Positions 693 to 26,166 of a stretch of 31,567 nucleotides of DNA are shown piece after piece (position 1 is the first letter of the stretch; each line of letters opens with the position of its first letter). The notes beneath the pieces are model-generated. The model was not told where the DNA came from and made no database searches. It saw only the letters and a program-made list of their open reading frames with translations. Source of the DNA: a virus; UHGV virus genome UHGV-1390503. One strand, 5' to 3'. Position numbers and translations under genes: made by a program.

Positions 693-899
693 TTACTTAA
701 CACGGCAACCTCCCTCAGAGTCGTCGGCACGAGCATCATGATTCGATGCCGTTCGGAGCGCACGTAAAACTTTTAGCAGGTCTTCACATGTCCCGGAAGA
801 AATAGTCGGGCCGTCTAATAAAACAACCTCGTATCTGTTTACCTGGAAATGCACTTTCTCCAGTCTATGATGTTTCAGTTCTTCAAATAATTCTTCCAT
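693..899 (-). CDS. Hypothetical protein
   Basis: The track ORF 693..902 begins at GTG; the in-frame ATG at 899-897 overlaps the stop of the upstream gene (minus strand GTGATG). Confidence 0.5.
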   Translation of the reverse strand: MEELFEELKHHRLEKVHFQVNRYEVVLLDGPTISSGTCEDLLKVLRALRTASNHDARADDSEGGCRVK

Positions 900-1090
900 C
901 ACTTCGCCCCTTTGAATTTAAAATTGTTGCCGATGAGTTCTAAATTCTCTTCCGCTACGTATACCACCGAATTTACTCCTCTCACCTTTTGCACAGTAAC
1001 TACGTACTCTCCCGGAAATAAAGCGGATTTTAATTCAATCACACCGTGTTTACCGTCGGCACATTTCACCAACTGACCCTTCTTAAACAT
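899..1090 (-). CDS. Hypothetical protein (first gene of the leftward operon)
   Basis: The track ORF starts at GTG 1099; the in-frame ATG at 1090-1088 is preceded by GGAGTGAGGG (Shine-Dalgarno-like) on the minus strand. Confidence 0.5.
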   Translation of the reverse strand: MFKKGQLVKCADGKHGVIELKSALFPGEYVVTVQKVRGVNSVVYVAEENLELIGNNFKFKGAK

Positions 1091-1111
1091 AACCCTCACT
1101 CCTATGTCTCG

Positions 1112-1157
1112 TTTCGATGAGTGAATAGTATCCTATTATGTTGGGGTGTGCAAGAGA
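1112..1157. promoter_or_regulatory. Promoter/operator element copy 1 (palindrome AATAG-N4-CTATT); candidate leftward promoter TTGCAC-N17-TACTAT
   Basis: TGAATAGTATCCTATTAT at 1122-1139; on the minus strand TTGCAC (1153-1148), a 17-nt spacer, TACTAT (1130-1125), about 25 nt upstream of the RBS of 899..1090. Orientation is ambiguous. Confidence 0.5.
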
Positions 1158-1235
1158 TTCATTGAAAATGGTTACGTTGCCGTTGTGATTCTTTAGGGAA
1201 GGTTGCGCCTTTATTCTTATTACTTGGTAACTAAA

Positions 1236-1256
1236 GGGCAGGCTTAAGGCCTGCCC
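1236..1256. other. GC-rich stem-loop in the long non-coding region
   Basis: GGGCAGGC-TTAA-GGCCTGCCC: 8 bp GC-rich stem; on the minus strand it is followed by TTTAGTT. Confidence 0.4.
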
Positions 1257-1410
1257 AATAATCGTTACATTTTTACGGTTGCGAATCTACGGCACATTAA
1301 GAAAATCAGATACTTAAGAGATATGCCGCCGATGATAATAGAGCTTGCCCAGGGCAACCGGAGATACTTAGAAAGGAAAGTTACAATAATTCTCATGTTC
1401 AGTAAGCCTG

Positions 1411-1444
1411 TGTTTAACCCTTTGCTTGACGCACGGGTTAAACA
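1411..1444. repeat. 10-bp inverted repeat TGTTTAACCC / GGGTTAAACA with a 14-nt spacer
   Basis: Read directly; the spacer contains TTGACG. Possible operator or RNA hairpin. Confidence 0.4.
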
Positions 1445-1594
1445 TTCTTACAAGGTGAACAGGAATCAAAGTAACTAAGATATAGAAGCACCTTAAACGA
1501 AGATTTTCATAATGTCAATAGGTGCGATTATGTTTGATTTCCCATTATTCGCAATGTATACTTGATTTCGTTAACTGATAATGAGGGTTTTAGA

Positions 1595-1750
1595 ATGGTT
1601 ACTTTGACAGAAGAACAGTTGGAAAAGTTGCTGATAGAAGCGTGGTTTAACGGACATAACGAGAGCAGATACTACTGCCCTAATAAATATCGCACAGCTA
1701 CGGCGTTCGCGCGGGAAACAATTAAGGAGATTAAAGATGACACAGAATGA
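1595..1750 (+). CDS. Hypothetical small protein (51 aa)
   Basis: The track ORF starts at TTG 1562; the in-frame ATG at 1595 is preceded by GAGGG 8 nt upstream. Confidence 0.5.
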   Translation: MVTLTEEQLEKLLIEAWFNGHNESRYYCPNKYRTATAFARETIKEIKDDTE

Positions 1751-1907
1751 GGTAGCTGAGCGCATCGGGGTTACTCGCCGCACACTGAATAACTGGTTAA
1801 AGAGTGGGAAGTTCCCGGATTGTTGTATTCGCATTATGGGCCGACGTCAGCCAGGTACGTTTGACCCGGAGAAAGTGGAAGCATGGATTAAGGAGAATGT
1901 AAAATGA
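1737..1907 (+). CDS. Small HTH DNA-binding protein (AlpA/excisionase-like), 56 aa
   Basis: Not in the track (<60 aa). ATG 1737, stop TGA 1905-1907 overlapping the next ATG (ATGA). The MTQNEVAERIGVTRRTLNNWLKSGKFP segment is a typical helix-turn-helix. Confidence 0.6.
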   Translation: MTQNEVAERIGVTRRTLNNWLKSGKFPDCCIRIMGRRQPGTFDPEKVEAWIKENVK

Positions 1908-2137
1908 CCGAGTTCCAGTCACGCGTATTTACGGCAGTTGTTTCGTTAACCCGCAAAAAAGGGTCATGCAGCGTTATCGACTTGCGCCGTAGTTATTTTA
2001 GGTACTATAGTTCCGCCATTATTGAAGGGTCGTTGAGGGTACTGGTTAAATCTGGTGTCGTGAAAAACACTGGCGGGAAATATAGCGCCGTTGCAGAAGT
2101 TCGTGGAATGACCGCTACTTTAGAAGACCTGGAATAA
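1904..2137 (+). CDS. Hypothetical protein, possible winged-helix; C-terminus ends LEDLE
   Basis: 77 aa ORF with ATG translationally coupled to the upstream gene. Confidence 0.5.
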   Translation: MTEFQSRVFTAVVSLTRKKGSCSVIDLRRSYFRYYSSAIIEGSLRVLVKSGVVKNTGGKYSAVAEVRGMTATLEDLE

Positions 2138-2196: not shown

Positions 2197-4437
2197 ATGT
2201 CCGATGTAATTTTATCCTACTCGTGGTCCCGTCGCAACGCGCGGGCAGAGAAAAAGGATATAAACGTCAGAACCACTCACACGGCAACACTGGACGACCT
2301 GAAAGAGCTACTCCAGCCGCTTGATGCTGTCCGTGACGGAATTAACCCGAAGACCGCGTCTGGCTATATCACTGCCGCGTGTGACTCTACGCACAGCACC
2401 GTAAAAGACCCTGAAACAGGTGACTTTAAGCAAGCGCGTAAAGGCTTTTTCTATCGCTGCGACGCGTCTGTAAGCAAATCGTCGCTGGCGTATCTGGACT
2501 TCGACAGCGCAACACCGGAAGAGTACCAGGAAGCGGTGCGCCGGGTTAAGCGCAGCCGCCGGGCCATGTGCCTCTATACCACGGCATCGCATACCGAGGA
2601 GTCACCGCGCTTTCGCGTCGTTATGCCTCTTGGACGCCCGGTTGAAGGCGGCGACATCATCCGCGTTCGCCATGGATTACTTGAGCACTTCTTCAAAGGC
2701 ATGGGTGCTGACCGCAGCGGGTTCACTCTGTCGCAACCGATGTACCTTCCGCCTGTTGGCGCTACCGTTATCTGGTCGCGTCGCAACGACCTGATTGAAC
2801 CGGACGAGTTACTGGAAGACATCCCCGCCGTTGACGTCAGCAGCGCATCGGATTACCAGATACCGGAAGAACTGCGCACCGCGTTTACGGATGCGTTCGA
2901 GGCACTGGCGTTTGAGTACGGCGGTGTCATGACGCCACGTGGCCTTAAGATGCCAGCTACGCCGGAACACGCAGAGAACTACAGCGACCCGACGCCGCGT
3001 TCGGACGACTTCCTGCTGTGCTTCCCGCGTGAAGGGTACGAAGCACCTAACGTAACCATGATTCACGACACCGACATTACGGCAACCGAAGGCATGTCAC
3101 CGAAAGAGGTGTGGAAGTACGCGTGCGATGCGACCGGGCTGCCGTTCAGTGAAGTCGCTGAGGCAATCGGCTGGGGTGCGCGTGAATTCGTTTCATGCAG
3201 CCTTGATGACCTGGAAGACGACGAGGACTCAGAGGAGGACGAGTTACCGGAACCGGTAAAGGCTGATTTTGTCGTCGAAGGGTACATGCCGTCAGATTGT
3301 ATCTGGGATATAGTCGGGGAATCTGGCACGTACAAATCGTTCTATACGCTGGGGATGATGTACCTTAGCGCCGCCGGATACCGGTTTGCAGGCGCGGACA
3401 CCCAGCGTTGCCACCATTTCTATATAGATGGTGAGGGGGGCGCAGCTACGCGCACACGTATTGATGCCCTCGCGGCTAAATATGGCGAGGAAGGTAAAGA
3501 TTATGTGCATGTCATCGACATGGGCGAAGTAGGAAAACTGAAAAGTCTGATTAAGCTAATGCGCGAAACCGCGGGGGATGAGCCTATCGGCATGGTCGCG
3601 TTCGACACCCTCAACCAGACGCTGGCCCTGACTATCGATAAGTTCGACGAGAACAGTTCATCAACGGCAATCGGCATGGGCAAAGTTATCGCCATCCTGA
3701 AAGAAGTGCGCGATGCAACTAAAGCCGCGGTAGGCGTTGTCCACCATACGCCGAAAGGTGGAAAGAAAGCCCGCGGCAGTGGGGCGCTGTATGCAGGTGT
3801 CGACGTGGAACTGACAATCGAACGCGCAACAGACCGTCGGATAAATGTATACCACTCTAAATTTAAGCACGGGCCTCAACAGAAAACTGTTGGCATGGTG
3901 CTGGAGTCGGTACAGTTTCGTGAAGCGCCGCCGCCGAAAGAGTACCGCGCGGTTGAGTTCCTGGGCAGCACAGAGGAATACGGCACAATCGTAGACCTTG
4001 ACCTGCCAGAACCACATAAGGCACTTGTGTTAATGCCGTGGGGTTTCGAGCCGTTTAAGACCGACGAGGAGAAAGAGCGGGAAGAAGGGCTGACAAAGGA
4101 AGGTAAAGAAAACGTAAAGAATACTGTAAAACGTGGAAAGGATGAAGGGCGTAAGGAATCAATACTCGCCGCACTGGAAGACCTGCAACAGTCAGACGAC
4201 ACAGGACGAGGTTTTACACAACGGCAGATAGTGGCGAATTCGGGCGACCACGCCATCACCAACCATCATCTCGAGAAGATGCTGAAAGACGGTGAGTTGA
4301 TGCTCGGATGCGATGTTAACGGTGAAGTTATACCTGGCACATACCGGATACCGGAAAAGATGGGTGACAGATTAAGACCAAAGACAATATACGAACCGAA
4401 TGAAATGCTGACAGTGACAGAGGAGGATTTGGAATGA
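2197..4437 (+). CDS. Replicative primase/helicase-type protein with RecA/DnaB-like P-loop ATPase domain
   Basis: The track ORF starts at GTG 2155; ATG 2197 has GAAGGAA upstream. Walker A-like GESGTYKS, Walker B-like VAFD, HHTPKGG motif and a long N-terminal domain of the size expected for a primase; ends TEEDLE. Confidence 0.8.
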   Translation: MSDVILSYSWSRRNARAEKKDINVRTTHTATLDDLKELLQPLDAVRDGINPKTASGYITAACDSTHSTVKDPETGDFKQARKGFFYRCDASVSKSSLAYLDFDSATPEEYQEAVRRVKRSRRAMCLYTTASHTEESPRFRVVMPLGRPVEGGDIIRVRHGLLEHFFKGMGADRSGFTLSQPMYLPPVGATVIWSRRNDLIEPDELLEDIPAVDVSSASDYQIPEELRTAFTDAFEALAFEYGGVMTPRGLKMPATPEHAENYSDPTPRSDDFLLCFPREGYEAPNVTMIHDTDITATEGMSPKEVWKYACDATGLPFSEVAEAIGWGAREFVSCSLDDLEDDEDSEEDELPEPVKADFVVEGYMPSDCIWDIVGESGTYKSFYTLGMMYLSAAGYRFAGADTQRCHHFYIDGEGGAATRTRIDALAAKYGEEGKDYVHVIDMGEVGKLKSLIKLMRETAGDEPIGMVAFDTLNQTLALTIDKFDENSSSTAIGMGKVIAILKEVRDATKAAVGVVHHTPKGGKKARGSGALYAGVDVELTIERATDRRINVYHSKFKHGPQQKTVGMVLESVQFREAPPPKEYRAVEFLGSTEEYGTIVDLDLPEPHKALVLMPWGFEPFKTDEEKEREEGLTKEGKENVKNTVKRGKDEGRKESILAALEDLQQSDDTGRGFTQRQIVANSGDHAITNHHLEKMLKDGELMLGCDVNGEVIPGTYRIPEKMGDRLRPKTIYEPNEMLTVTEEDLE
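4414..4437 (+). repeat. 24-nt repeat GTGACAGAGGAGGATTTRGAATGA (copy 1)
   Basis: Matches 7839-7862 with one mismatch; encodes a C-terminal VTEEDLE, a GAGGAGGA Shine-Dalgarno and the ATGA stop/start overlap. Confidence 0.8.
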
Positions 4438-4631: not shown

Positions 4632-4636
4632 AAAGA

Positions 4637-4655
4637 AAGGGGCGTTAAGCCCCTT
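4637..4655. terminator. Bidirectional terminator hairpin between convergent genes
   Basis: AAGGGGC-GTTAA-GCCCCTT; on the minus strand it is followed by TCTTTTTATT. The stop of the minus-strand regulator lies in the loop. Confidence 0.55.
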
Positions 4656-4860
4656 CACCGAACGCCAGCCACTTGGCGTCTACTTGCAGCACTTCCGCCA
4701 GTTTAAACAGCGTCGCCGGGCGGACGTCCTGAGTTACCCCGAGTGCAAGCTGGTTGATTGCGCCCTGGGAAACGCCGGCCAGGACAGCCAGACGGCGCTG
4801 GGAGATACCGAGTTCTTTACGGCGTTGTTCTACACGGATGCCTAGTTCTGATGGTTGCAT
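4645..4860 (-). CDS. XRE-family (Cro/CI-type) helix-turn-helix transcriptional regulator
   Basis: 71 aa; the LGISQRRLAVLAGVSQGAINQLALG segment is a canonical XRE HTH; oriented against the flanking rightward genes. Confidence 0.8.
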   Translation of the reverse strand: MQPSELGIRVEQRRKELGISQRRLAVLAGVSQGAINQLALGVTQDVRPATLFKLAEVLQVDAKWLAFGEGA

Positions 4861-4880: not shown

Positions 4881-4910
4881 TTGATATGTGAATAGTACCA
4901 TATTAATTAT
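4881..4910 (+). promoter_or_regulatory. Promoter/operator element copy 2
   Basis: TTGATA-tg-TGAATAGTACCATATTAAT; sigma70-like, with the palindrome only half conserved. Confidence 0.45.
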
Positions 4911-4924
4911 TTTAGAAAAGCCCA

Positions 4925-4954
4925 TTGACAACGTGAATAGTTCACTATTATAGT
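4925..4954 (+). promoter_or_regulatory. Promoter/operator element copy 3 (TTGACA-N18-TATAGT with embedded AATAGT-tc-ACTATT)
   Basis: Consensus -35 TTGACA at 4925-4930, TATAGT at 4949-4954, perfect 6-bp inverted repeat in the spacer; about 30 nt upstream of the RBS of 4986..5495. Confidence 0.6.
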
Positions 4955-4985
4955 TAGCTCATACCAAACGAGAGGAGAGAAACAA

Positions 4986-5495
4986 ATGTTAGAGAAATTC
5001 TTGGTATTACTGGAACGTTTCGTAGTTGCGCATGAACTGATTGCCGCGAATAGTGTGAAACGCCCTGTGCCGCCGACTGAGCGTGCGGGTGAAATGCTTG
5101 TAGACGCGTCGGTTACGGGAGAGGTACTTGAAGTCGACCCAGGTACTGGCGTCGGGAAAGAAATACCGGTTGAAGGTGAAGACATCGTCGACACTAAACC
5201 GGCAGAAGAAGAGAAGCCAAAACGCAAGCCGCGTAAAGCTAAAGTAGAGGAACCGACGCCAGAACCGGAAGAAGAGAAGGAAGAAGTTGATTATAAGTCT
5301 CTGCGCGACCAGATTCAGGCTATCGACGATGCAATTAACGAAGGTCCGAGCGATGCTGCGTGCGATGATTCCGATGAACTGCTGGGAGAGTTCACCGGTA
5401 AGAAGATGAAGATTGCCGCGATTAAAGATGAAGACCTGGCCGAGTATCTGGAACGCCTTACGGCAATCAAGAACAAGTATTTCGAAGAAGAATAA
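4986..5495 (+). CDS. Highly acidic early protein (169 aa), function unknown
   Basis: Strong RBS GAGAGGAGAGA; the C-terminal two thirds are rich in E/D (EEEKPKRKPRKAKVEEPTPEPEEEKEE...DDSDELL); followed by a terminator. Confidence 0.6.
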   Translation: MLEKFLVLLERFVVAHELIAANSVKRPVPPTERAGEMLVDASVTGEVLEVDPGTGVGKEIPVEGEDIVDTKPAEEEKPKRKPRKAKVEEPTPEPEEEKEEVDYKSLRDQIQAIDDAINEGPSDAACDDSDELLGEFTGKKMKIAAIKDEDLAEYLERLTAIKNKYFEEE

Positions 5496-5538: not shown

Positions 5539-5874
5539 ATGAACTACGAAAATTTAACAGACATAGAAATTAATGCACGTGTCAGCCGCGCACTATACGG
5601 AGATGTTTCGCGAGGGCATCAGATGGAATTAGCTTCTGGAGCAGTTGATTATTGTAATCGAATAGAGGACGCATGGCCTGTTATCCACGGTAACAATATC
5701 TCGATTGTAGCTACAGATTTAGAATGGATCGCTTTACCGGATAATGCGGTTATTGACGGTATTACCGGAGACGCCACCAGTATGATTTATGTAGACGACT
5801 CATGTGTTATTGGTGCAAATCCCCTACGCGCAGCAATGATTGTCTTCCTTGAAATGCAGGAGGTAAAGAAATGA
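5539..5874 (+). CDS. Hypothetical phage protein (possibly DUF2591-like, from weak memory)
   Basis: 111 aa ORF with ATG and GAGGG RBS. Confidence 0.5.
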   Translation: MNYENLTDIEINARVSRALYGDVSRGHQMELASGAVDYCNRIEDAWPVIHGNNISIVATDLEWIALPDNAVIDGITGDATSMIYVDDSCVIGANPLRAAMIVFLEMQEVKK

Positions 5875-6149: not shown

Positions 6150-6280
6150 TTATGTATTCAATCGGTGAGGAAGAGTACGAACACAGTAGATACCTTACAT
6201 CCGCAGAGGCTGAGAATATGATACACGAACTTGACGCTGGCAGTTTCGACTACGCATGGATTGAGGAGATTACGGAATGA
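6140..6280 (+). CDS. Small hypothetical protein (46 aa), below the track cut-off
   Basis: ATG 6140, stop TGA 6278-6280 overlapping the next ATG (ATGA); acidic product MFVIMYSIGEEEYEH... Confidence 0.35.
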   Translation: MFVIMYSIGEEEYEHSRYLTSAEAENMIHELDAGSFDYAWIEEITE

Positions 6281-6624
6281 CCGATAAATGGTGGCTTAAT
6301 CTGCGAAGTGGCGACAAGGTTTACACGGTCGGCGACCGCAGAAAGAACAGCGGCGTAGCTACTGTGCTACAAAACGGAAAAAAGTATATACACATTGCGC
6401 ATGAGGCTCGCGCGCTCCGCGTGAATAAATCGTCTGGCAGGCTTGAGGATTACCCGAAAACCTTAATATATAAAAGTGAAAAGCATCACATGGAGTCAAT
6501 TGACGCAAGACGACAGTTCGCAGGAATGTTGCAACAGTTAAGTGACTTACATCGTGATGATTCTTTCATTCCCACAGAAGAACAGTTACAGGCATTAAAC
6601 TTGTATTTGGAGGCGGTACGATGA
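6277..6624 (+). CDS. Hypothetical protein
   Basis: 115 aa ORF, translationally coupled. Confidence 0.5.
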   Translation: MTDKWWLNLRSGDKVYTVGDRRKNSGVATVLQNGKKYIHIAHEARALRVNKSSGRLEDYPKTLIYKSEKHHMESIDARRQFAGMLQQLSDLHRDDSFIPTEEQLQALNLYLEAVR

Positions 6625-8036: not shown

Positions 8037-8065
8037 TTGACACCTGAATAGTTGGCTATTATAGT
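8037..8065 (+). promoter_or_regulatory. Promoter/operator element copy 4 (TTGACA-N17-TATAGT with AATAG-ttgg-CTATT)
   Basis: Consensus -35 and -10 with 17-nt spacing, about 55 nt upstream of the SSB-like gene. Confidence 0.65.
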
Positions 8066-8118
8066 TCTAATCACTGGCCGGGCAGCTTCCCGGAGTAAAC
8101 TGAAAAGCGAGAAATCAA

Positions 8119-8745
8119 ATGGGACTGACATTAAATCTGCGTAAAGTAAACACTGCTTGGGTTAACGTATTTGAACGCGAAAAAGACCGTGAAAACGATG
8201 ATGGCTCAATCACTAAAGGCCAGTACAGCGCAACTATCATCCTGCCACCTGACCATGCTCAAATCGATGCGCTCTACGACACCGTTTACGCTGTAGTTGA
8301 AGAAGCCTTAGGCGCAGCCGCTGCTGAGAAGTGGATGAGGTCCAACTACGGCGAAGGTAAGCACATGGATAAATGCGCTATTAAAGACATTGCCGAGCGC
8401 GACAATCCGTTTGAAGACTTCCCGGAAGGTTTCTACTTCAAAGCGAAGGCACAGAAACAGCCGCTGATTATAACCTCTAAAAAAGGTGAGACTCAGGTAG
8501 AACAGGACTTCAATGTAGACGGCGAACAGATTGAAGGCGAACAGGTTTACAGCGGATGCGTCGCTAACGTAAGTGTTGAAATCTGGTTTAGCCAGAAATA
8601 TAAAGTCCTCGGGGTTAAACTACTGGGAATTAAATACATTGGTGAAGGTAAAGCGTTTGGTGGTTCTAAAGTCGCTGCAAGCGTCAATGACCTGGAAGAC
8701 GACGAAGAAGATGAAGCACCGCGCCGTGAACGTCGTCGCCGTTAA
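8119..8745 (+). CDS. Phage single-strand DNA-binding protein (DUF2815-like) with acidic C-terminal tail
   Basis: 208 aa; the sequence family is recalled as the SSB partner of DUF2800 nucleases; C-terminal NDLEDDEEDEAPRRERRRR. Confidence 0.7.
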   Translation: MGLTLNLRKVNTAWVNVFEREKDRENDDGSITKGQYSATIILPPDHAQIDALYDTVYAVVEEALGAAAAEKWMRSNYGEGKHMDKCAIKDIAERDNPFEDFPEGFYFKAKAQKQPLIITSKKGETQVEQDFNVDGEQIEGEQVYSGCVANVSVEIWFSQKYKVLGVKLLGIKYIGEGKAFGGSKVAASVNDLEDDEEDEAPRRERRRR

Positions 8746-8765: not shown

Positions 8766-8788
8766 AGGCCCTTCATTGGGCCTTTTTA
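8766..8788 (+). terminator. Rho-independent terminator
   Basis: AGGCCC-TTCATT-GGGCCT followed by TTTTT. Confidence 0.65.
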
Positions 8789-11652: not shown

Positions 11653-11801
11653 CAATGTTTGTATTTTGGACGATAGTAACCATGCTCGCACTGTTGCTCG
11701 GTGCTGGAATAGCCGCGATGTTCTGTTATGGCCTGTTCTTTAAGTTTGTTGGCGTTGCCGTTCTCGGTGGGGCTTTCCTTACCTGGATTCTGCGGTCATG
11801 A
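11649..11801 (+). CDS. Small membrane protein (50 aa, two hydrophobic helices)
   Basis: MTMFVFWTIVTMLALLLGAGIAAMFCYGLFFKFVGVAVLGGAFLTWILRS; ATGA-coupled to both neighbours. Confidence 0.35.
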   Translation: MTMFVFWTIVTMLALLLGAGIAAMFCYGLFFKFVGVAVLGGAFLTWILRS

Positions 11802-12112
11802 CTAAAGAGGGCCGTGTACAGAAATACACAAAAGAGCGATTCGAGGCCCTGGGGGGCCTCGTTCGTAAACTTTCCTACGAAGGACGTTCTGGTGCTCCTG
11901 ACCTGCTGGTAATTCTCCCTGGCGGCATCATCTGGTTTGTCGAGGTTAAGAAAGACGAGAACACGAAGCCAGACCCCCACCAGTTACGAGAGCATGCGCG
12001 TATGCGTAAACGTGGTGCAAATGTTTTTGTCGTCGGGTCGATAAAACAGGTTGACACCCTAATAGCAGACTATTATAGTAAGCACATACCCCAACAATAT
12101 AAGGAATTATAA
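11798..12112 (+). CDS. VRR-NUC domain nuclease
   Basis: 104 aa; PDLLVIL...GIIWFVEVKKDENTKP...HQLREHARMRKRGANVFVV matches the VRR-NUC core as recalled. Confidence 0.75.
   Translation: MTKEGRVQKYTKERFEALGGLVRKLSYEGRSGAPDLLVILPGGIIWFVEVKKDENTKPDPHQLREHARMRKRGANVFVVGSIKQVDTLIADYYSKHIPQQYKEL
12051..12079 (+). promoter_or_regulatory. Promoter/operator element copy 6 (TTGACA-N17-TATAGT with AATAG-caga-CTATT), inside the 3' end of the VRR-NUC gene
   Basis: Read directly; about 35 nt upstream of the ATG at 12114. Confidence 0.55.
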
Positions 12113-12113
12113 A

Positions 12114-12368
12114 ATGGCTATCGAACTTCAACTGTCAGTAAACACCATGATTCTCGGTTCAATCGATTCATCTGTCCGCGTCGGTAAATACACAGGAGCG
12201 TCAGCTAATTACTCATGGTCTATGAAGGTTTCGGAAGTAAACCGTATCCTGGGTTTCGGGTCAGTTGGCCGCAAGGTGCTTACGGAAGACGTAGCTAAAG
12301 GGCTGTCTGTAGACTTTACAACGGCTGGCGAACTTATTAAGCAAGTTCAAGCCGAATTATCTAACTAA
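12114..12368 (+). CDS. Hypothetical protein
   Basis: 84 aa ORF with ATG. Confidence 0.5.
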   Translation: MAIELQLSVNTMILGSIDSSVRVGKYTGASANYSWSMKVSEVNRILGFGSVGRKVLTEDVAKGLSVDFTTAGELIKQVQAELSN

Positions 12369-15202: not shown

Positions 15203-15236
15203 AGAAAAGGCCCCTTTTGGGGCCTTAGTTTTCTTT
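15203..15236. terminator. Bidirectional rho-independent terminator between the replication and tail modules
   Basis: AAGGCCCC-TTTT-GGGGCCTT with T-runs on both strands; near-identical to the hairpin at 26143-26162. Confidence 0.7.
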
Positions 15237-24224: not shown

Positions 24225-24330
24225 TCTTTAATCCTTTGGTTAAGAGGTTACTGGTTAAGATTAACGCGCCAGACGGGAACCACCCGCTTTTCGTGTGCGA
24301 CACTAGGCGCAAACTTATTCTAGCACACTA

Positions 24331-24365
24331 CTTGCGCACCCCAATATAATAGGGTACTATTCGCC
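24331..24365. promoter_or_regulatory. Promoter/operator element copy 5, inverted relative to copy 1
   Basis: Revcomp GAATAGTACCCTATTATATTGGGGTGCGCAAG matches copy 1 at 31 of 34 positions; read rightward TTGCGC-N17-TACTAT (24332-24360) would drive the island; read leftward it would drive the tail genes. Confidence 0.55.
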
Positions 24366-24388
24366 TGTAACTTACTGAGGAAATAATT

Positions 24389-24715
24389 ATGCGTAAATTA
24401 GTGTTAGCTCTTGGTTTTATGTCTTTTGCTACTTTTGGGTCTCCGTGTGAACAGGTGTTTAGTGAATCCGTTCTTATGACTTCTGGTGTGCTTGATAAAG
24501 CCGACCCTACTATTGTAAAGGCATTTAAAGACTCTACCGTTCGCGAGTGTGAGGCCGCTGTAGAGGTTGGTAAATCTGGTCTGCCTCCGCAAGCGGTGAC
24601 TTACACCGTGGTGCGTTCCGTAGAGAAAGACGGAGACGCGTTCTACAGCCTGCTAACAGCTACCCGTCTGCAAATGGTGATGACTGGATGGGCGATAGGC
24701 GCGGAAAGTAAATAG
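24389..24715 (+). CDS. Secreted/periplasmic small protein with N-terminal signal peptide
   Basis: 108 aa; MRKLVLALGFMSFATFG followed by a mature part with two Cys; RBS GAGGAA; opposite strand to the surrounding structural genes. Confidence 0.6.
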   Translation: MRKLVLALGFMSFATFGSPCEQVFSESVLMTSGVLDKADPTIVKAFKDSTVRECEAAVEVGKSGLPPQAVTYTVVRSVEKDGDAFYSLLTATRLQMVMTGWAIGAESK

Positions 24716-24780
24716 TTGCCTTTATTTAAAGGAACGCACTGTGGTTAAATAGGACAAATCCTAAACACGAGGAAGTAAGC

Positions 24781-25911
24781 ATGGCCAGGAAGAAAATAAC
24801 CGACGAGCAGTTACAGGAAGAATTGAACGCCGGGATGAAGAATATCGACATTGCCCGTAAATACGGCATCTCAGACCGCGTTATTCGTATACGTAAAGCG
24901 AAACTAGCGAAGAAAGGAGTTGGTCACGGGCGGGACGTCAGCCACCTTGTGCCAGATGGCTACAAGATTAAAGGGACGTCGTCTCTGGTGGACGAGTTCG
25001 GCAACACTAAGTTGCAATGGGTTAAGACTGACACCGATGTCGAACGTCAGGTTGAATTGATGAAAGCCGTAATCGAAGGCATGAAGTCAGAGATTACGCC
25101 CGTCGCACCTGTTAAAGCAGCACGCGCCAAACGCGACGACAAGTTACTCAATCTTTACACGGTATCTGATTTCCATCTCGGTATGCTGGCCTGGGCCGAC
25201 GAGAGCGGCGACGACTGGGATATGAAGATTGCTGAAGACTTGTTCTCCCGTTGGTTCGATGCAGCGTTTCAGAAAGCGCCGGATTCAGGAACTGGGGTTA
25301 TTAACCTGCTGGGTGACCTCGCGCACTTCGACAGTCTGGTTGCTGTTACACCGGCAAGCGGTAATGTTCTTGACGCCGATACCCGCTACCAGAAACTGGT
25401 ACGCTACATGATTCGTATGGTACGTCGTGTTGTCGATATGGCCCTTGTTAAGCATAAAAATGTTCGCTTGCTTATCGTACAAGGGAATCATGACGAAAGC
25501 GGAATGATTTGGTTAGCTGAGATGTTCAGCACGCTATACGACAATGAGCCTCGTGTGTTCGTCGATACTTCGCCAGATGTTTACAAGATGGTGCAACACG
25601 GCAAAACGACGCTGTTCTTCCATCATGGGCATAAAGCGCGCTTCGACGCTATCGAACCAGTTATGATTGCCAAGTTCCGCAAAGCATTCGGCGAGAGCGT
25701 TTATAGCTACGCCCACGTAGGCCACCTGCACCACCAAAAGATTGTAGAAAGCCGTAACATGATTGTTGAGCAACACCGCACCTTAGCGGCCAAAGACGCC
25801 TACGCATCCAGAGGCGGTTGGATGTCGGGCCGTAGTGCAAATGTAATTACTTATAGCGCCGAATACGGCGAGGTCGCACGTTTAACTATTTCACCGGAGA
25901 TGCTGGGATGA
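24781..25911 (+). CDS. Calcineurin-like metallophosphoesterase with N-terminal HTH-like basic domain
   Basis: 376 aa; DFHLG, GDLAHFD, GNHDE, HHGH and GHLHH occur in the order of the metallophosphoesterase signature; the first 50 aa resemble a helix-turn-helix. Confidence 0.7.
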   Translation: MARKKITDEQLQEELNAGMKNIDIARKYGISDRVIRIRKAKLAKKGVGHGRDVSHLVPDGYKIKGTSSLVDEFGNTKLQWVKTDTDVERQVELMKAVIEGMKSEITPVAPVKAARAKRDDKLLNLYTVSDFHLGMLAWADESGDDWDMKIAEDLFSRWFDAAFQKAPDSGTGVINLLGDLAHFDSLVAVTPASGNVLDADTRYQKLVRYMIRMVRRVVDMALVKHKNVRLLIVQGNHDESGMIWLAEMFSTLYDNEPRVFVDTSPDVYKMVQHGKTTLFFHHGHKARFDAIEPVMIAKFRKAFGESVYSYAHVGHLHHQKIVESRNMIVEQHRTLAAKDAYASRGGWMSGRSANVITYSAEYGEVARLTISPEMLG

Positions 25912-26138
25912 CTTCAAAATACAACCGCACAATGACAAATACTCACGGCAGCACAATGACAGTAGACGTTTATGATGTGCTACGCGCCTTCGACATCCGC
26001 GACCCTGCACTACAGCACGCATTGAAGAAGCTGCTGTGTATGGGTCTTCGTGGGCACAAGGACACCGGAACCGACTTAGCGGAAGCAATTGAAAGTCTGG
26101 AGAAGTTACGGGAGTATAGAAGCAATATTGATGAGTGA
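25908..26138 (+). CDS. Small phage protein (possibly DUF3310-like, from weak memory)
   Basis: 76 aa; ATGA-coupled; the LQHALKKLLCMGLRGHKDTGTDLAEAIESL segment. Confidence 0.45.
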   Translation: MTSKYNRTMTNTHGSTMTVDVYDVLRAFDIRDPALQHALKKLLCMGLRGHKDTGTDLAEAIESLEKLREYRSNIDE

Positions 26139-26142
26139 GAAA

Positions 26143-26166
26143 AAGGCCCCTTCCGGGGCCTTAGTT
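26143..26166. terminator. Bidirectional rho-independent terminator
   Basis: AAGGCCCC-TTCC-GGGGCCTT with TTTTT on the minus strand; near-identical to the terminator at 15207-15226. Confidence 0.7.

Follow-up and report, generated by a model that had tools for sequence, protein, structure and literature searches.

What does a short palindrome do when it recurs inside one promoter-like sequence after another in a phage genome? The question is raised by positions 8,037 to 8,065 of UHGV virus genome UHGV-1390503, a stretch of 31,567 nucleotides (nt) that we call the window, where GAATAG-N4-CTATT lies between a TTGACA hexamer and a TATAGT hexamer. A first-pass annotation of the window had claimed six copies of such a palindrome and read them as the binding sites of a common repressor or activator. 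Our follow-up puts at roughly even chances the reading that (T/G)AATAG-N4-CTATTA is the operator of a dimeric phage helix-turn-helix (HTH) repressor, most probably the 434-Cro-like XRE protein of 71 amino acids (aa) encoded at 4645..4860.

The window derives from the Kagunavirus group of the Guernseyvirinae siphophages, as determined by megablast with a 25-kb query. The best records, which include Escherichia phages SZH-1, K1H and NTEC3 and BASEL Bas70-76, cover 61-75% of the query at 87-90% nucleotide identity, and the 552 related records come mostly from Escherichia coli and Salmonella. Gene order is the same in the annotated relatives SZH-1, K1H and the Jerseyvirus SE2, and about 12 kb of the genome falls outside the window. 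The annotations of SZH-1, K1H and SE2 contain no integrase, CI repressor, excision module or RNA polymerase gene, and no RNA polymerase gene is found among the large open reading frames (ORFs) of the window. The paper on phage Golestan likewise reports no lysogeny genes, and these phages are regarded in the literature as strictly lytic (PMC7203180). The Guernseyvirinae (Kagunavirus, Jerseyvirus) are often-isolated phages of E. coli and Salmonella that have been proposed for therapy and food biocontrol, and their transcriptional programme is essentially unstudied.

The palindrome is far more frequent than expected by chance. When both strands are searched for GAATAG-N4-CTATT with at most one mismatch, the window gives 11 strand matches, compared with 0.27 +/- 0.63 in 100 dinucleotide-preserving shuffles, none of which reaches 11. 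The six copies claimed at first pass are thus real, and the motif is not one that base composition predicts. The sites are as follows, with the sigma-70 score given as matching positions of 12 for the three that lie in promoters we call class A.

1123..1137: site 1, GAATAG-TATC-CTATT, exact match
4890..4904: site 2, GAATAG-TACC-ATATT, one mismatch, in the right arm; 30 nt from the XRE start codon
4935-4949: site 3, palindrome within a predicted class A promoter at 4925..4954 (plus strand), TTGACA-acgt-GAATAGTTCACTAT-TATAGT, 11/12
8046-8060: site 4, palindrome within a predicted class A promoter at 8037..8065 (plus strand), TTGACA-cct-GAATAGTTGGCTAT-TATAGT, 11/12
12060-12074: site 5, palindrome (TAATAG) within a predicted class A promoter at 12051..12079 (plus strand), TTGACA-ccc-TAATAGCAGACTAT-TATAGT, 11/12
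24348..24362: site 6, motif on the minus strand, plus strand AATAGGGTACTATTC, exact match

Site 5 forms a perfect 16-base-pair (bp) dyad at 12060-12075. An enumeration of all 5-mers with gaps of 0-8, which assumes no motif, also returns AATAG-4-CTATT as the commonest 5-mer inverted repeat in the window (five exact copies), and the runners-up are GC-rich terminator stems. The same repeat is the top inverted repeat in SZH-1 and K1H, with seven copies each, and by the same enumeration is tied first or clearly first in most Jerseyvirus loci. A search allowing two mismatches gives 18 matches where 11.7 are expected, so that the additions are at chance level and the family in the window consists of the six sites. 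A hairpin or cruciform structural element is ruled out, with single-strand folding energies of 0 to -2.4 kcal/mol. A degenerate orphan copy of the palindrome with two mismatches is present at 78-91, downstream of the last leftward gene's stop codon but ahead of the terminator.

The sites are associated with promoter sequences in two distinct arrangements. Class A (sites 3, 4 and 5) has the layout TTGACA, a linker of 3-4 nt, GAATAG, N4, CTAT, TATAGT, such that the dyad fills the promoter spacer and contributes, with its last T, the opening base of the -10 hexamer. With 11/12 matches to the sigma-70 consensus and spacers of 17-18 bp, these three are the only matches of at least 10/12 in the window besides one intragenic match, and the total of promoter-like matches in the scanned region (17 versus 16.8 expected) is not above chance. 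TTGACA begins at 4925, 8037 and 12051, in each case 3-4 nt upstream of the palindrome, and TTGATA at 4881; the latter belongs to a rightward element at site 2 (TTGATA at 4881-4886, 18 nt, AATTAT) that matches at 9/12. The first-pass annotation was therefore correct in placing a -35 hexamer upstream of four copies (TTGACA three times, TTGATA once), and of its two proposed -10 hexamers, spacing favors TATAGT and not TATTAT. The site 3 promoter precedes 4986..5495 and recombination and replication genes, which it probably drives. Site 4 is upstream of the gene for an Enc34-type single-stranded DNA (ssDNA)-binding protein (8119..8745, Pfam) and the DNA polymerase gene, and site 5 lies within the 3' end of the VRR-NUC gene (11798..12112; VRR_NUC match), upstream of 12114..12368. 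The fifth copy had been described as part of a divergent intergenic region, but it actually occupies the last VRR-NUC codons in a block of co-directional genes.

In class B, which comprises sites 1 and 6, the element consists of TTGCRC, a 17-nt spacer and TACTAT, and it is the -10 hexamer that lies inside the dyad. The match to sigma-70 is weaker (8/12 by manual count from the sequence).

1125..1153, minus strand: class B promoter-like element of site 1, -35 TTGCAC at 1153..1148, 17 nt, -10 TACTAT at 1130..1125
24332..24360, plus strand: class B promoter-like element of site 6, TTGCGC at 24332-24337, 17 nt, TACTAT at 24355-24360

Each leads through a short 5' untranslated region (UTR) to a gene start, site 1 to the gene at 899..1090 (minus strand, ATG at 1090) and site 6 to the island genes at 24389..26138 (plus strand, ATG at 24389). 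The two also share an extended match, in which 1121-1154 and the reverse complement around 24348 are identical at 30/34 positions; this 34-nt match had been attributed to copies 1 and 5, but copy 5 reaches only 16-19/34. The promoters originally drawn at copies 1 and 6 read the opposite way from the conserved ones, and we rejected both. At site 1 the rightward -10 decays among relatives (TATGTT, TATATT, TATACT, TATATC and TATGTC), including loss of its final T, and at site 6 the -35 GTTACA (24371..24366) is swapped out for unrelated sequence in about half of the orthologues, along with the divergent gene, while the TTGCRC block stays with the palindrome in all contexts. The site 1 block is conserved in relatives as CTTGCACACCCCAAyAT-AATAGGATACTATTC followed by the 5' UTR AAACGAGA..GGAG, and the downstream gene is swapped in some of them. 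Class A and class B promoters share the 5' UTR and ribosome-binding motif AAACGAGA(G)GAG (4955-4985; 1091-1124 on the minus strand), and in relatives different genes are joined immediately after this motif; hence promoter-UTR cassettes coincide with mosaic recombination joints.

The center of the dyad is at about -18.5 in class A and about -12.5 in class B, and the two registers are thus 6 bp apart. TTGACA- and TATAAT-like hexamers separated by 17 +/- 1 bp upstream of genes are what a sigma-70 promoter should show, and the overlap of the palindrome with three spacers and with the class B -10 is what an operator should show, both as judged by sequence. In contrast, an activator of the MerR type would call for an over-long spacer of 19-20 bp in a suboptimal promoter, and here near-consensus hexamers flank spacers of 17-18 bp. 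Most likely, the dyad is an independent module that overlaps core promoters, as is expected of an operator.

Comparisons among relatives show which bases are kept. The comparison drew on 37 Kagunavirus loci from IMG/VR spanning the XRE gene, 13 Jerseyvirus loci and 49 loci spanning the tail-chaperone gene, and the dyad is present in about 50 related Kagunavirus and Jerseyvirus genomes. Among distinct sequences for each orthologous site, the arms differ from the site consensus at 0-7% of positions and the N4 center at 14-30%; AATAG-N4-CTATT thus has the fixed arms and tolerant center of a dyad operator of approximately 14-18 bp. The arms of site 1 are invariant in 30 unique orthologues while the center varies, those of site 3 are invariant among distinct orthologues with a center that departs from consensus at 21% of positions, and site 5 has at least eight center variants between fixed arms. 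Even the imperfect right arm of site 2 (ATATT) is the same in 39/39 orthologues. At site 6 the palindrome is kept in about 35 loci anchored on the tail-chaperone gene (TAC-anchored), even where the divergent neighboring gene is different. By comparison, the linker that joins the -35 to the left arm varies in sequence and by a 1-nt indel. Several relatives also carry an exact orphan dyad outside any promoter, in the interval that separates a stop codon from a terminator, and here too the arms are fixed and the center varies (for example L031 14662-14675). We know of no base-specific RNA polymerase contacts at the spacer positions taken up by the left arm, and the two promoter registers and the orphan site argue that the dyad is not an RNA polymerase contact pattern. 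Together with the fixed arms and variable center, they indicate an independent, dyad-symmetric recognition element. Based upon these comparisons, a protein-binding site common to many promoters is the best-supported interpretation, over a by-product of promoter consensus or cassette duplication, and to this extent the shared regulatory site proposed at first pass is upheld.

Which protein might bind? Pfam scans of 30 window proteins (10 plus 20 small ORFs) revealed no recognizable sequence-specific DNA-binding domains other than an HTH_17 domain and that of the XRE protein. The first-pass annotation had named both proteins as candidate binders, and the evidence favors XRE for its homology to 434 Cro, its divergent double site and its invariant helix.

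4645..4860, minus strand: XRE, 71-aa HTH protein (Pfam HTH_3), favored candidate binder
1737..1907, plus strand: HTH_17 (excisionase/AlpA-like) protein of 56 aa (Pfam HTH_17, E 2.1e-7), disfavored binder

XRE matches HTH_3 (PF01381) at E 1.2e-12, with 48 bits against a cutoff of 23, and therefore carries the lambda-repressor-like domain of Cro/CI-type regulators. It aligns to phage 434 Cro over residues 6-68 (E 4.9e-7), and the two proteins have the identical length of 71 aa. The gene is apparently monocistronic, ends at a terminator-like hairpin (4656..4636) and is transcribed divergently from a region that holds sites 4890 and 4935, which are 45 bp apart between the XRE start (4860) and the divergent operon (4986). 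More than one operator beside the regulator gene is typical of Cro/CI-type systems, and both sites are kept in 39/39 relatives examined. In a candidate leftward XRE promoter, TTCACG (4937..4932), 17 nt, TAAAAT (4914..4909), site 4935 would coincide with the -35 and site 4890 would fall at roughly +4 to +17, an arrangement that suggests autoregulation. The XRE recognition helix GVSQGAINQLALGVTQ does not change among homologues of 77-100% identity, except for one G-to-S variant (L034), and this constancy parallels the invariance of the operator arms. The N-terminal arm and C-terminal tail of the homologues are variable and mosaic around the invariant helix-turn-helix: N-terminal arms MQPSELGIRV or MQQSPIGARM occur in mixed combinations with C-terminal tails VDAKWLAFGEGA or VKPEWLAFG... 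(P0009, P0011-P0016).

From these patterns we infer that transcription starts from the promoters as drawn, that the dyads are bound by a protein, that XRE is this protein, and in which direction it regulates. Every copy overlaps the core of a putative host sigma-70-type promoter. In class A (4935, 8046, 12060) the dyad would lie in the spacer and touch the -10, with its center near -18.5, whereas in class B (1123 leftward, 24348 rightward and probably 4890 leftward) the right arm would be part of the TACTAT -10, with the center near -12.5; in either position a bound dimer would exclude RNA polymerase. The dyad overlaps the spacer or -10 of near-consensus promoters with 17-18 bp spacers, which makes repression much more likely than activation, and the undecided "repressor or activator" of the first-pass annotation can be narrowed to this degree. 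A perfect site on a strong rightward promoter, combined with an imperfect site over or just downstream of the XRE promoter, would constitute the layout of an autoregulated Cro/CI-type switch. The role of such a switch might be the feedback control or shut-off of most early, replication and island operons in a virulent phage that has no CI partner.

The arrangement resembles that of 434 Cro and its operator region. In both cases a 71-aa single-domain HTH_3 protein, alignable over its whole length, is accompanied by 14-bp dyads with conserved arms and variable centers that overlap core promoters (434 operators are 14 bp long), and two sites, one of them imperfect, are located in the divergent region beside the regulator gene. 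There are also differences. The half-site is AATAG here and ACAA in 434; the geometry here is 5+4+5; and the sites, which are known here from sequence, are dispersed over at least 6-10 promoters genome-wide instead of one immunity region. Nor does this virulent group have the CI partner, integrase or lysogeny module of lambdoid phages, since a CI protein with a dimerization or cleavage domain and lysogeny functions are absent from the annotations of SZH-1, K1H and SE2.

Several observations weigh against XRE as the binder. The Jerseyvirus XRE protein is only about 51% identical and has the helix SQSLITH in place of SQGAINQ, yet the dyad is nearly the same (TAATAG-N4-CTATTA), differing only in its flanking base (T in 100% of Jerseyvirus dyads; T in 51% and G in 40% of those of Kagunavirus), which is at most suggestive of covariation. 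Similarly, the natural G-to-S change in the helix of L034 is not accompanied by any change in the sites. The composite TTGACA-N4/5-AATAG-N4-CTATTATA occurs in 61 stretches in IMG/VR, all on contigs found in the XRE-protein scans except for two fragments (5.8 and 8.3 kb), but because these contigs all belong to this lineage, the co-occurrence of XRE and motif represents one lineage and not independent evidence. Likewise, the homologue search returned no independent lineage with the same helix, only relatives of at least 77% identity, mostly on Kagunavirus-sized contigs. In Cornellvirus-type phages, which retain an XRE homologue of about 40% identity, the palindrome signal is weak and different (TATTA-N6-TAATA, three exact copies, the right arm itself being the -10), and their XRE-proximal promoter has no dyad. 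Regulators may also be encoded in the approximately 12 kb outside the window, such as the NinH annotated in fBC-Eco01. Finally, it is not obvious how a repressor on nearly every promoter would produce the temporal programme. In the only Kagunavirus transcriptome, the RNA sequencing (RNA-seq) of K1B4, for which timing is coarse, most genes peak together; its gene labels include 004 'specific DNA binding', 005 'AAA domain' and 008 'Helix-turn-helix domain', the last of these an early gene, and the mapping of these labels to XRE and HTH_17 is ambiguous.

The repeat itself has been published before as a set of promoters. PHIRE lists seven copies in fBC-Eco01, PP1-PP7, with the consensus tgAATAGTa-ccTATTat-T, labeled 'Phage RNAP promoter' (PMC9825357), and seven copies of 'conserved phage promoters' in vB_EcoS-Golestan (PMC7203180). 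These are the same sequences as the dyads of the window (TGAATAGTACCCTATTATAT, TGAATAGTACCATATTAATT, TAATAGGGTACTATTCATTA and others), but the two papers do not mention the dyad symmetry, the sigma-70 embedding, the two registers or the link to XRE. Apart from that published label, nothing speaks for promoters of a phage-encoded RNA polymerase. The sites are embedded in near-consensus sigma-70 promoters, and the reading is effectively refuted by the absence of a polymerase gene from the annotations of SZH-1, K1H and SE2 and from the large window ORFs. Since these phages have no such gene, the label is a software default. A distinctly unlikely account, though one with more in its favor, is that the dyads have no dedicated binder, and that copies of a promoter and 5' UTR cassette were spread by duplication and recombination, with the arms tuning polymerase binding or spacer geometry. 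The shared flanks CTAT|TATAGT, the 5' UTR AAACGAGAGGAG and the 30/34 match of sites 1 and 6 are what cassette copying would leave behind, mosaic junctions fall right at the cassette edges, and PHIRE detects the element simply as a repeated 20-mer. However, copying explains neither the dyad symmetry nor the free divergence of center and linker beside fixed arms. The left arm would also have to be maintained at spacer positions that are not known to make base-specific polymerase contacts, and the same dyad appears in two registers 6 bp apart as well as at the non-promoter orphan site.

Other proteins could instead occupy the sites. It is unlikely, but a credible alternative, that the operator belongs to a regulator encoded outside the window or invisible to Pfam, or to a host factor shared by E. 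coli and Salmonella; we know of no host factor with an AATAG half-site. All of the evidence for a protein-binding module applies equally to such a factor, which would also accommodate the difference in XRE helix between Kagunavirus and Jerseyvirus beside a nearly constant dyad, and the helix variant without site change. Candidates include the 77-aa winged-helix-like protein at 1904..2137, which K1H and many other relatives nevertheless lack while retaining the sites, and a NinH/Fis-like protein, given that NinH is annotated elsewhere in the fBC-Eco01 genome. Against any of these, XRE is the only classical dimeric HTH protein found in the window, and its gene is divergent from the double site. 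The 56-aa HTH_17 protein might act differently, as a processive antiterminator of the Q/AlpA type with a loading site in the promoter spacer, like the lambda Q-binding element, which lies between the -35 and -10 of PR'. This excisionase-like protein, encoded at 1737..1907, has a phyletic pattern that parallels the motif (present in Kagunavirus and Jerseyvirus, absent from Cornell-type phages), and a 'Helix-turn-helix domain' gene is among the four earliest in the K1B4 RNA-seq. Yet no match to it was found by tblastn up to E 1 in the available sequence of contigs L018 and L031, where the dyads are intact, and because these two independent contigs keep the sites without it, HTH_17 is disfavored as a binder of any kind. 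A loading site would moreover not be expected to be a symmetric dyad that also overlaps the -10 and occurs at an orphan position, and downstream of the predicted class A starts there is no consistent -10-like pause element. We consider antitermination very improbable.

Upstream of the primase-helicase gene, L018 (~3627-4209) and L031 (12559-13144) carry a swapped module where the window has the HTH_17 and 77-aa genes (1737-2137): it encodes a zinc-ribbon protein of 47 aa (CxxC...CxxC) and a protein of 149 aa whose C-terminus is winged-helix-like. Window positions 1100-1736 form a long and mostly non-coding region that separates site 1 from the rightward replication operon. Within it are a strong terminator-like hairpin (1236-1256), a promoter-like TTGATT-17-TATACT at 1534-1562 that has no palindrome, and the beginning of an ORF (1562..1750) unannotated in SZH-1, whose likely ATG at 1595 would give 51 aa and whose end overlaps the HTH_17 start.

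If XRE is indeed the repressor of these dyads, most early, replication and island operons would be controlled through one small protein and its 16-bp site, and the "phage promoter" labels in the literature would have to be corrected. Each promoter/operator pair would furthermore offer a compact, well-defined part with which to engineer these phages. Repressor-operator regulons are textbook biology in kind, and the description of this one is a useful annotation more than a surprise.

Site 6 deserves separate consideration, since a second candidate promoter reads away from it toward the tail genes.

24317..24344, minus strand: candidate tail-operon promoter, TTGGGG at 24344..24339, 16 nt, TAGAAT at 24322..24317, proposed from sequence

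This putative promoter overlaps the class B promoter in a back-to-back arrangement, and 3 nt separate its -35 from the end of the palindrome upstream. A TAnnnT hexamer is kept at its -10 position in all clades, 6-8 nt before a structured leader. The leader, between the palindrome at 24348 and the tail-chaperone start (24224, minus strand), is conserved in Kagunavirus, Jerseyvirus, Cornell-type and other related contigs and forms a three-helix structure at 24310..24266 (minus strand), the whole element spanning 24249-24313. In 13 diverse Guernseyvirinae sequences, 94.5% of pair cells are paired, and compensatory changes affecting both sides are seen at five pairs. Covariation scores 0.331, compared with 0.119 in shuffles (0/500 reach the observed value) and 0.04-0.14 when the 3' partners are slid, and RNAalifold predicts the same helices. 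The leader also matches the Rfam int-alpA RNA (RF02996) end to end at 32.5 bits, although this match came from a relaxed search and falls below the gathering threshold of 35.8 bits, at which Rfam gives no match anywhere in the window. Both have three helices, a conserved CUAG, and GAAAAGCGGG and CCCGCCUGGCGC; unlike RF02996, which Rfam types as a stand-alone small RNA gene, the element here is the 5' leader of a tail operon. As judged from its sequence, the tail-operon leader is an int-alpA-like structured RNA.

The proximity of operator and leader suggests how the two might be connected. Divergent, overlapping promoters under the control of one operator are known from lambda PR/PRM and P2 Pe/Pc, and at site 6, and probably at sites 2/3, back-to-back promoters likewise share a dyad, such that one dimer could set the direction of transcription. 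The site 6 dyad would be the operator of one of the two promoters; a dimer bound there would block the island promoter yet sit at about -44.5 of the tail promoter, and its occupancy could move polymerase from the island genes to the tail operon. It is a matter of speculation that site 6 could form an early-to-late switch in this manner. In contrast to PR/PRM and Pe/Pc, a palindrome center near -44.5 of the candidate tail promoter is a non-canonical position for activation. We regard as decidedly improbable the most far-reaching version, in which a lone Cro-like protein serves as a genome-wide timer through 6-10 promoter-embedded operators, site 6 flips expression from island to tail, and the int-alpA-type leader acts in cis in late-operon expression.

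Additional features were observed in the window. The 5' UTR between the site 4 promoter and the Enc34-type gene (8072-8100, plus strand) contains CACTGGCCGGGCAGCTTCCCGGAG, which is almost unchanged in Kagunavirus, Jerseyvirus and even Cornell-type phages. Its hairpin energy is unexceptional (-8.7 kcal/mol, z 0.73), and the element may be a translational operator for the ssDNA-binding protein. Three copies of a GC-rich terminator stem, AGGCC(CC)...GGGGCCT, are present at operon ends (8766-8783, 15208-15225 and 26144-26161), and the same stem recurs in SZH-1 and K1H. Two adjacent DUF551 paralogues are encoded on the minus strand at 97-297 and 315-512 (E 1e-10 and 3e-14), and the window also encodes a NinX-like protein (5539-5874) and a protein with a phage ProQ C-terminal-like domain (6277-6624).

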